Virus record (IMG/VR): IMGVR_UViG_2778261069_000008
DNA from: a virus
Taxonomy: Duplodnaviria; Heunggongvirae; Uroviricota; Caudoviricetes
DNA: 25,564 nucleotides
Strand: one strand, 5' to 3'
Below the pieces are notes generated by a model, which did not search any database, had not been told where the DNA came from, and saw only the letters and a list, made by a program, of their open reading frames with translations. Shown piece after piece: positions 23,234 through 24,300 of the stretch; position 1 is the first letter of the stretch; the number at the start of each line of letters is the position of its first letter. The position numbers and the translations under genes were made by a program.

Positions 23234-23358
23234 CATCCTGTAAACAGGCGCTTCTTTCAGACCATGAAGCAAGGGCGTTGTCTACGACAACTATAATGCA
23301 GGCGGGAGACTGCGCCACTATTGCTGGCGCAGGAAGGAAAAACTGTTTTTGTCTTTGG
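23234..23358. repeat. Direct repeat copy 1 flanking the toxin-antitoxin cassette
   Basis: CATCCTGTAAACAGGCGCTTCTTTCAGACCATGAAGCA plus a GAAAAACTGTTTTTG block; closely similar to 24190-24300. Confidence 0.55.
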
Positions 23359-23381
23359 AAAATTGTTTCACTGAACGGCAG

Positions 23382-23412
23382 AAAAAAACGAGGGCACTGT
23401 AACAGCGCCCTC
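23382..23412 (-). terminator. Rho-independent terminator of the toxin-antitoxin operon
   Basis: On the minus strand GAGGGCGCTGTTACAGTGCCCTC hairpin followed by a 7-U run, 20 nt after the toxin stop. Confidence 0.65.
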
Positions 23413-23430
23413 AGTCAGCATGAAAAAAAA

Positions 23431-23763
23431 TCAGGCCAGGATGGTTTCCAGCCTTGCCAGCACCTCGTTGATGATACCGTCAGGTATGCGCTCCAGCCGC
23501 TTACCGTTTCGGGCTCCCATATCAATGGTTCTGGGCTGATCGCAACGAATAATCCCCGTCGTTTTTGTGCCAGCGCCCTCCAGCGAAACCGCAAAACCCG
23601 CGCTACGGGCAAATTGCCCACCGCTGGTTACCGGAACAATGACGGGCAACCGGGTGACCTCGTTAAACGAGGCCGGAGAAACGATAAGCACCGGGCGTTT
23701 TCCGCTTTGCTCATGCCCGGCGATAGGGTCAAGTGAAACAAGCCAGATTTCTCCTCTGTCCAT
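23431..23763 (-). CDS. MazF/PemK/ChpB-family toxin (endoribonuclease)
   Basis: 110 aa, MDRGEIWLVSLDPIAGHEQSGKRPVLIVSPASFNEVTRLPVIVPVTSGG..., typical PemK/MazF fold signature; start immediately follows the antitoxin stop. Confidence 0.85.
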   Translation of the reverse strand: MDRGEIWLVSLDPIAGHEQSGKRPVLIVSPASFNEVTRLPVIVPVTSGGQFARSAGFAVSLEGAGTKTTGIIRCDQPRTIDMGARNGKRLERIPDGIINEVLARLETILA

Positions 23764-24021
23764 TTACAGGATCTCCTTCCCTGCGGCAGGCGCATCAATC
23801 CATTCGCGCTCCTCATCACTGATTTCTTCATGGGGATCGCATTGCGCCAGCAGTTCGGCCAGTGAATAGCGTGGTCGTTTTTGCGGTTCGATAATCAGGC
23901 AGCCGTTGTCGATGGTTACACCGACTTCGCTGTCCGGCAACAGGGCCAGCGTTTTCAGCACGGCGGGCGGAACAGCCAGCATGACAGAACCGCCAACCTT
24001 TTTCAGACGTGTGGTATACAT
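23764..24021 (-). CDS. MazE/PemI/ChpS-family antitoxin (AbrB/SpoVT-type)
   Basis: 85 aa from MYTTRLKKVGGSVMLAVPPAVLKTLAL... with C-terminus RYSLAELLAQCD...EIL resembling ChpS; GGAGG SD 6 nt upstream; the track ORF extends further in frame but is trimmed. Confidence 0.8.
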   Translation of the reverse strand: MYTTRLKKVGGSVMLAVPPAVLKTLALLPDSEVGVTIDNGCLIIEPQKRPRYSLAELLAQCDPHEEISDEEREWIDAPAAGKEIL

Positions 24022-24037
24022 AGGGTACCTCCAGATA

Positions 24038-24053
24038 TTATATTTAAATATAA
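24038..24053. promoter_or_regulatory. Perfect 16-bp palindrome TTATATTTAAATATAA in the toxin-antitoxin promoter region
   Basis: Lies just upstream of the antitoxin SD; candidate autoregulatory operator and -10 region; candidate -35 TTGTAC 17 nt upstream on the minus strand. Confidence 0.55.
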
Positions 24054-24189
24054 CATCCTTATCCCGCGATGTACAATTATCAATCAGATTCATTGTGGTT
24101 TCCTCAGTGTAACGAAGTGTGATGAAAGCCTTAATCTGTCTGTTGACAGATCCGACAGTTTTCAAAGGTCCTGTCGTATTAAGGGCGAC

Positions 24190-24300
24190 CATCCTGATAA
24201 ATCAGGCGCTTCTTTCAGGCCATGAAGCATTTTGTGCAAAGGGGAACGTACAGCGCGGCTACGGTGCGGATAAGGGAAAACTGTTTTTTCGTTGCGAAGG
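24190..24300. repeat. Direct repeat copy 2 flanking the toxin-antitoxin cassette
   Basis: CATCCTGATAAATCAGGCGCTTCTTTCAGGCCATGAAGCA plus a GAAAACTGTTTTTTCG block; pairs with 23234-23358. Confidence 0.55.

Follow-up and report, generated by a model that had tools for sequence, protein, structure and literature searches.

The 25,564-nucleotide (nt) stretch of DNA analysed here, called the window throughout (IMG/VR record IMGVR_UViG_2778261069_000008, a virus of the Caudoviricetes), carries a pemI-pemK toxin-antitoxin operon with a copy of one structured non-coding element on either side, and this element is related to the STAXI motif (Rfam RF01728). Going by sequence, the two repeats are old paralogues of one element; the copy downstream of the operon is called c1 and the one upstream c2. 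They are a new single-unit variant of the known STAXI motif, arranged around a site of toxin-antitoxin exchange. The account that we consider probable is that a Kis/Kid operon lies beside two paralogous STAXI-like elements, that the block made of c2 and pemIK was gained or lost by recombination, and that the elements act as RNA leaders. The comparison exposes a single-unit STAXI-like family, missed by the Rfam threshold, in 43 Enterobacterales loci and in pESI-type Salmonella megaplasmids. We know of no function given to STAXI since 2010 or to the associated EFASI motif since 2017, and a locus with natural filled, swapped and empty variants is a concrete system in which the ideas of an RNA leader and of a recombination hot spot can be set against each other. 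It also bears on how pESI gained its pemIK stability module.

The earlier note on this DNA had described the operon as bracketed by imperfect direct repeats and had proposed an alignment of the two copies. That alignment was made and the similarity is statistically sound: blastn aligned 55 nt at 87% identity (E 6e-11), the 27-nt core (23245-23271 and 24203-24229) matched at 26 of 27 positions and found no match in 100 shuffles of the window, and a second block (23334-23350 and 24272-24288) agreed at 16 of 17 positions, with 0.01 such matches expected by chance. The direct repeats on either side of the operon are thus real and present in two copies. Their limits had to be redrawn, as the repeated element extends further 3' (in gene sense) to ~23172 and ~24128, over an added part that is alike in structure and not in sequence, and the second block of the upstream copy lies at 24272-24288. 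Insertion of a transposon, an insertion sequence (IS) or a miniature inverted-repeat transposable element was considered and rejected, since the copies on either side are divergent direct repeats of 160-180 nt, and only 1-3 copies of the element occur per genome; no terminal inverted repeats were reported, and no transposase is present in the segment.

A scan for the core with one genome per species returned 43 loci, all from Enterobacterales, to which 6 further element-bearing loci from E. coli genomes and plasmids were added. Aligned in gene sense, the homologous element measures ~160-180 nt and comprises a conserved 5' block (AAAAACAGTTTTYCCTT), an optional P1 hairpin, a pseudoknot unit, stem A, a hairpin and a second pseudoknot-like pairing. 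RNAalifold returned only 15 pairs on the mixed alignment because the c1-type and c2-type 3' halves align in different registers, and for this reason pairing was counted only in the helices shared by all copies (n=55). In these helices 89.9% of the cells are paired, compared with 23-53% after the 3' partners were shifted by 1-3 columns, and double-sided changes occupy 108 cells, compared with 34 ± 8 in shuffles. Stem S2, paired in 96% of cells, shows compensatory changes at 3 of its 5 pairs (in 11, 14 and 9 sequences); the inner hairpin is paired in 92% of cells, and stem A has two pairs with compensatory changes in 20 sequences each. The two copies in the window themselves differ in this manner: S2 reads UGGUC/GACCA in c1 and UGGCC/GGUCG in c2, the inner hairpin CCUGU/ACAGG and CCUGAU/AUCAGG, and stem A CCGGUA/UACCGG and CGACAG/CUGUCG, respectively. 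Many of the pairs are G-U, so that the fold exists on the minus strand only, the sense strand of all neighbouring genes. The RNA fold of c2 has a z-score of -2.84.

The same repeats had also been suggested to be duplicated gene 5' ends, since both copies in the window can be read as (M/L)LHGLKEAP on the minus strand. A start codon (ATG, GTG or TTG) stands at this position in 32 of the 55 copies and is replaced by ACG, TGG, AAG and others in the remaining 23, the frame after the EAP falls into three classes (31, 19 and 5 copies) through indels in the inner hairpin, and the length of the open reading frame (ORF) ranges from 4 to over 45 codons across copies. Substitutions keep base pairs and not codons, and a Pfam search of the ORFs overlapping the repeats found no family. 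A small protein-coding gene duplicated at its 5' end is accordingly dropped as an extremely improbable explanation, and the common peptide reading is a by-product of nucleotide conservation in the core.

STAXI was described as a pseudoknot present in 2 or 3 repeats, with integrase, ssb, topoisomerase and antirestriction genes in its vicinity and, occasionally, c4 RNAs (PMC2864571), and EFASI takes its name from its place 'frequently around STAXI and integrases', with STAXI several hundred bp upstream of it (PMC12370729). A relaxed local search with the Rfam model matched c1 to STAXI at 23213-23292 on the minus strand (28.6 bits, E 1.2e-4); the match has high posterior probability over the P1 hairpin and pseudoknot unit 1 of the model, units 2 and 3 being deleted, and the E. 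coli homologues scored 37.3 and 28.5 bits. A canonical STAXI of 139 bits, which lies between topB and ssb in an integrative conjugative element of E. coli, has units built as 5' arm, stem, CUGAgA, 3' arm, GCC-loop-GGY and stem, and the core in the window shares this plan (GCUUC-A-UGGUC-UGAAA-GAAGC-GCCUG...CAGG-AU-GACCA). The succession of P1 hairpin and pseudoknot unit is common to STAXI and c1, with sequence shared in part (CUGAAAGnnGCGCC). Both the motif and the element are confined to Enterobacterales, occur near integrase genes and C4 and lie several hundred nt upstream of EFASI; the position of c1 between the C4/isrK region and EFASI with the Integrase_1 gene is where a STAXI would be expected. 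The elements in the window differ from STAXI in their scores (28.6-37.3 bits), in c2 being undetected and devoid of P1, and in their arrangement as two separated copies around a toxin-antitoxin operon. Additionally, the 3' half is a different stem/hairpin/pseudoknot block and not a series of further STAXI units.

Comparison of filled and cassette-less loci links the second copy to the operon. In each backbone locus, EFASI and the Integrase_1 gene are preceded by the unit c1. The P1 hairpin is usually missing from c2, which has a distinct 3' half and precedes pemI by 185-210 nt in all pemIK loci of the clade that were examined. By a sequence profile, which does not pick up canonical STAXI, each of the 12 pESI or island loci that contain pemIK has two units, ~970 nt apart and with the operon in between, and no locus has two units without pemIK in between. 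The closest backbones devoid of pemIK (L001, L002 and L035; flanks 90-92% identical) contain c1 only, their homology to the window ending at 23350-23368, the 5' edge of c1, and resuming at 24376-24458; against a Citrobacter reference, the cassette-less loci miss exactly q1030-2043, an interval bounded by the 5' edges of c2 and c1. A single block thus sets the filled loci apart from the cassette-less ones; it holds c2, promoter/operator, pemIK and terminator and lies immediately upstream of the resident c1. The search for empty sites that had been proposed along with the alignment thus found islands without pemIK and with one repeat copy, of which L001 is empty and L002 and L035 hold a higA-like gene, and four more loci (L010, L022, L025 and L045) are without the pemIK block and have a short gap only. 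Repeat-mediated cassette insertion, as suggested in the earlier note, survives in part: a gain or loss of the cassette beside the repeat is real, and the two copies are not obligatory ends of the cassette.

In the scheme that follows from these comparisons, c1 is the resident copy, leading the conserved stretch of c1, spacer, EFASI and Integrase_1 gene, and c2 belongs to the pemIK module. The block from c2 to the terminator would have been gained by recombination at or next to the resident element, and the loss of pemIK would be the reverse of the same event. From its position, exactly between the Ner-like gene and the 5' edge of c1, the block is probably the product of such a gain. The elements themselves would, as a best guess, be transcribed structured RNA leaders that precede gene modules.

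Several observations weigh against this account as a whole. The 28.6 bits of c1 fall below the STAXI gathering score of 40.5 bits, c2 alone matched no RNA family in Rfam at E values up to 10, and at the gathering threshold 18 related loci gave no STAXI and only EFASI, C4 and isrK; given that no copy reaches the Rfam threshold, the elements are called STAXI-like single-unit variants and not members of the family. Only one canonical pseudoknot unit is recognisable here, and STAXI is defined by 2-3 tandem units. Pseudoknot stem S1 (GCUUC/GAAGC) does not vary, its sequence having been fixed by the scan pattern, the single-sequence fold of c1 is weakly better than that of shuffles (z -1.7), and a promoter scan of the window found no sigma-70-like site for c1 or c2. 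As chromosomal loci were found via the repeat, the constant company of c2 and pemIK is a biased observation for chromosomes, though not for the plasmid counts given below. Finally, the sequences do not give the direction of the event, which could be an insertion of c2 with pemIK or a duplication followed by capture.

A more specific role would make c2 a cis-regulatory leader or promoter-bearing element for pemIK and c1 likewise for EFASI and the Integrase_1 gene, the repeat being there because both modules depend on one regulator. The distance between c2 and pemI is constant (~185-210 nt) in more than 20 loci across genera, plasmids and island remnants included; a unit with a c2-type 3' half precedes an unrelated relE/HTH (helix-turn-helix) cassette too, and canonical STAXI is likewise intergenic and ahead of genes. 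In most genera a near-consensus promoter-like motif (TTGAAC-N16-TATTAT), directed into the element, has the conserved 5' block of c2 as its spacer; this motif is degenerate (TTCGCA ... CCTTAT) in the window (24262-24296) and in its closest relative, E. whittamii L023, which speaks against such a role. Moreover, downstream of c2 the operon has a promoter and an operator of its own, of the kind shown to suffice in R1 (PMC1865072), the classical pemIK locus examined does without the element, as the plasmid counts suggest to be general, and plain physical linkage would also hold c2 beside pemI. On balance, such a regulatory role for each copy seems unlikely.

The operon that accompanies c2 is assigned by homology to the type II toxin-antitoxin systems and is a standard member of the Kis/Kid (PemIK, parD) family. 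PemK has Kid as its best solved relative (1m1f, E 3.7e-55 over residues 1-109; next chain E 2.9e-16) and is 77% identical to the classical PemK of thousands of IncF-type plasmids, while PemI scored 23.4 bits against Pfam's MazE model PF04014, taken as the mark of an AbrB/MazE-type N-terminal DNA-binding domain, slightly below the cut-off of 24.7, matched solved MazE/PemI-like chains with E 5e-7 to 6e-6 and is 84-94% identical to the annotated antitoxins of related loci. The stop codon of pemI (TAA) abuts the ATG of pemK (23763/23764) without a gap. The pair had been called MazEF/ChpSB-like; its place in the MazF superfamily stands, and the assignment to ChpSB gives way to the Kis/Kid type in view of the Kid match and the parD operator. 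The parD (kis/kid) locus of plasmid R1 and the pem (pemI/pemK) locus of R100 are the same system, with the gene order and sizes (85 and 110 aa) seen in the window. Those are plasmid loci, whereas pemIK in the window is chromosomal, lies in a tRNA-Asn island and belongs to a distinct clade (80-94% identity inside the clade) with c2 upstream, which the classical plasmid locus examined does not have. The toxin-antitoxin system is in itself of an already known kind.

The regulatory region of the operon also follows R1. A perfect 16-bp palindrome (TTATATTTAAATATAA) is read at 24038-24053, as had been observed from the outset together with a terminator of the operon's own (11-bp stem and T7 at 23389-23413), and both features hold; the relaxed Rfam search gave partial terminator-type matches at the terminator as well. 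In R1, region I of parD is an 18-bp symmetric site that overlaps the -10 and is footprinted by Kis and Kid-Kis (PMC1865072); its sequence (GTTATATTTAAATATAAC) is identical to the operator in the window (GGATGTTATATTTAAATATAAT, minus strand) at 17 of 18 bases, and the predicted -10 TATATT (24047-24052) falls inside the palindrome. An operator sequence of the R1 type is present in the classical plasmid locus L053 too. R1 parD has a second, pseudo-symmetric operator, region II (GTTATATTTTTATTAAAC, 33 bp upstream), of which a direct reading of 24055-24120 found no counterpart in the window. By analogy with the family, PemK would be a sequence-specific endoribonuclease neutralised by PemI, and the PemI-PemK complex would repress its own promoter via the region-I palindrome over the -10, in a manner dependent on the toxin-to-antitoxin ratio. 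The operon probably stabilises the tRNA-Asn island by addiction.

Plasmids offer a comparison of another kind. A PemK homologue is encoded in 4173 plasmid records, of which 144, with PemK at 80-90% identity, are pESI-type Salmonella megaplasmids; the repeat is carried by ~144 plasmid records, with two copies each around pemIK, a number that agrees with the 80-90% class, and the repeat matches include none of the 3893 records of classical PemK. No unit was found within 2.5 kb of the classical plasmid locus L053, and the counts suggest that classical plasmid pemIK loci are generally without one. The match between the pESI segment and the islands begins at the 5' edge of c2 and ends where EFASI starts, and so includes c2, a c1-like unit and the spacer; the segment looks island-derived. 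A conjugative leading region was considered for this segment and found no support, as the 32 kb around the pESI copy contain no ssb, psiB or ardA and are a patchwork in which IS elements alternate with genes for defence or toxin-antitoxin systems.

Other loci have kept pemIK and lost its surroundings. The downstream unit is absent in L005, L009, L011, L013, L016, L018, L034, L037, L040 and L043, and in nine of these ten homology ends at the pemK stop, L043 continuing ~120 nt further into integrase fragments. After pemK, a terminator and then the 3' end of tRNA-Asn follow in L009, L011, L013, L016, L034 and L040, loci of several genera, and only a short att-like repeat of a tRNA 3' end in L005, L018 and L037. 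These loci look like island remnants in which the toxin-antitoxin operon was kept and the integrase module lost, and the sharp boundary at the pemK stop, considered as the end of a mobile cassette, is instead the end of a remnant abutting tRNA-Asn or an att repeat.

The cargo beside the element varies. A higA-like antitoxin gene of ~100 aa lies between the HTH_35 gene and the unit in E. coli L002 (3808-4110), E. albertii L035 (~965-1240) and Brenneria L028 (3153-3452), with no recognisable higB and no second unit in these three loci; L047 has the same 620-nt gap at the cargo site, which is empty in L001. In E. coli N17 (L054, 1965-2928), a RelE/ParE toxin and an HTH antitoxin take the place of pemIK and c1, preceded by one unit, which combines a P1 hairpin with a c2-type 3' half, and with no c1 after them, in backbone flanks 88-96% identical to those of a pemIK-bearing island. 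Compared across these loci, the place next to the STAXI-like element is a toxin-antitoxin cargo hot spot, holding pemIK, relE/HTH, a higA-like gene or none. Units of hybrid appearance also occur, either without P1 and with a c1-type 3' half (L032, L039 and the downstream copy of L006) or with P1 and a c2-type 3' half (L042, L048 and L054). They share the junction ...CCTGCACAAAATGCTTCA and show that copies of the element have exchanged sequence.

Such variation raises the question of whether the elements are themselves recombination sites. They could be att- or attC-like sites for the neighbouring Integrase_1, a circular molecule of unit and pemIK having been integrated at a resident unit in an integron-like platform: the insert lies between two like-oriented direct repeats, the stretch missing from cassette-less loci measures exactly one repeat period and its breakpoints fall at the 17-nt block, cargo differs between islands of closely similar backbone, a recombinase gene always adjoins the element, hybrid-looking units with a common junction exist, and a role for STAXI as single-stranded DNA was raised by Weinberg et al. 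(PMC2864571). However, at most one cassette and two units occur per locus, no second unit accompanies the higA-like cargo and just one unit the relE/HTH cargo, both the window and E. coli have 'pure' c2 and c1 units and not reciprocal hybrids, and the many G-U pairs and UUCG loops favour RNA. The hybrids are accounted for just as well by homologous recombination or gene conversion over the 27-55 nt that are nearly identical; a recombination-site function is therefore regarded as very unlikely. With similarly little confidence we entertain that the STAXI-like elements mark, and perhaps mediate, cassette exchange, with the core or the 17-nt block as an Integrase_1 crossover site or as folded single-stranded DNA. 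If this were true, modules of unit and toxin-antitoxin genes would be captured, swapped and lost beside the integration module of the tRNA-Asn island, and an orphan motif of 16 years would get a function.

The likeness to integron cassettes is one of outcome only, in that variable cargo is bounded by copies of a foldable element near a tyrosine-recombinase gene. Unlike integrons, the locus in the window has no arrays and no IntI-type integrase, its neighbour being Integrase_1 (PF12835), and whereas attC sites are imperfect palindromes, the elements described here are not attC-like and their strand-specific G-U pairing points to RNA. The gene order of the locus is that of the EFASI-associated integrase module of enterobacterial islands, to which the window and a subset of its relatives add a toxin-antitoxin cassette and a second element between the HTH gene and the resident element. 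The coordinates of all features are collected in Table 1.

Table 1. Features of the STAXI-like/pemIK locus, of the tRNA-Asn island and of the remaining window.
Feature	Position	Strand	Remarks
c1, resident STAXI-like element	23172-23350	-	unit profile E 3e-18; covariation; 90-92% identical to the single copy of loci without pemIK
c1: 5' block	23350-23334	-	positions of parts given in gene sense
c1: hairpin	23333-23310	-	
c1: P1 hairpin	23291-23277	-	
c1: pseudoknot core	23271-23229	-	
c1: stem A	23219-23196	-	
c1: hairpin	23195-23182	-	
c1: second pseudoknot arm	to ~23172	-	
c2, paralogous STAXI-like element travelling with pemIK	24128-24288	-	unit profile E 2e-21; without P1 hairpin
c2: 5' block	24288-24272	-	
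c2: core	24229-24186	-	
c2: stem A	24176-24153	-	
c2: hairpin	24151-24134	-	
c2: arm	24133-24128	-	
pemK, Kid-type toxin, 110 aa	23431-23763	-	PF02452 (PemK_toxin), 97 bits (cut-off 23.1)
pemI, Kis-type antitoxin, 85 aa	23764-24021	-	Shine-Dalgarno GGAGG 24028-24032
pemIK operator	24037-24054		reads GTTATATTTAAATATAAT on the minus strand; similarity to R1 parD region I
pemIK promoter (promoter scan)	24047-24075	-	-35 TGTACA 24070-24075; 17-nt spacer; TG-extended -10 TATATT 24047-24052
pemIK intrinsic terminator	23389-23413	-	11-bp stem + T7
EFASI RNA motif	22681-22809	-	Rfam 94.8 bits; directly upstream of Integrase_1 gene
Integrase_1 / Phage_int_SAM_2 tyrosine-recombinase-like gene	21739-22641	-	PF12835 198.7 bits; PF12834 135.4 bits
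Hairpin 3' of HTH_35 gene	24331-24359		
Ner-like HTH_35 regulator gene	24369-24574	-	PF13693 65 bits, profile positions 1-46 of 75 only
156-aa conserved protein, island regulatory module	24571-25041	-	adjoins HTH gene in related loci too
C4 antisense RNA	25095-25182	-	Rfam 76.1 bits
isrK	25204-25282	-	Rfam 63.3 bits
tRNA-Asn	18898-18973	+	island attachment end
Island tyrosine integrase ORF	19033-20397	+	attachment end of tRNA-Asn island
mtfA	17961-18797		between prophage and tRNA-Asn island
Prophage integrase	16739-17764		next to tRNA-Ser 17817-17906
Exonuclease-domain protein	14006-16477		prophage part
DicF	13430-13481		prophage part
DnaC-like gene	8680-9426		prophage part
sok antitoxin RNA	6005-6179		prophage part
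Q antiterminator	3300-3995		prophage part
Four-tRNA cluster	2780-3089		prophage part

The island sits at the tRNA-Asn gene downstream of mtfA, and the order C4/isrK, 156-aa protein, HTH_35, element at the STAXI position, EFASI and Integrase_1 is kept in loci of E. coli, Citrobacter, Salmonella, Klebsiella, Pantoea and Brenneria. EFASI was found at the equivalent position in 22 related loci and lies downstream of the element in every backbone locus, with C4/isrK upstream in most. In some related islands C4 is replaced by a match to sRNA-Xcc1 (69 bits; L008 5582-5666 and L010 6036-6120), and in Citrobacter youngae L015 two tandem EFASI copies (1159-1289 and 1495-1625; 114 bits each) follow a single STAXI-like unit. 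The spacer between c1 and EFASI (22810-23171, ~360 nt) is 70-92% conserved in nucleotide sequence across islands and moved with pemIK into pESI; a Pfam search of its ORFs of 68 and 125 aa gave no match and it holds no conserved ORF. The spacer may be a further structured RNA.

Within the regulatory module, the 156-aa protein matched no Pfam family. The Ner-like HTH_35 gene is broken by a -1 frameshift near 24424, so that its product ends at 56 aa, compared with 66-84 aa in intact relatives; the conserved C-terminus GVTPEQIWPSRY is read in another frame, in which (E)EPGVTPEQIWPSRYH runs on to a stop at ~24369. Right after isrK an IS3-family element begins (window ~25400-25564; orfA from 25493, MTKNTRFSPEVRQRAV...), which may resemble IS629/IS1203, and as a result any island cargo past the regulatory module falls outside the window. 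A search of the phage collection gave nothing relevant to the pemIK/repeat locus. The rest of the window (1-17906) is a lambdoid prophage.

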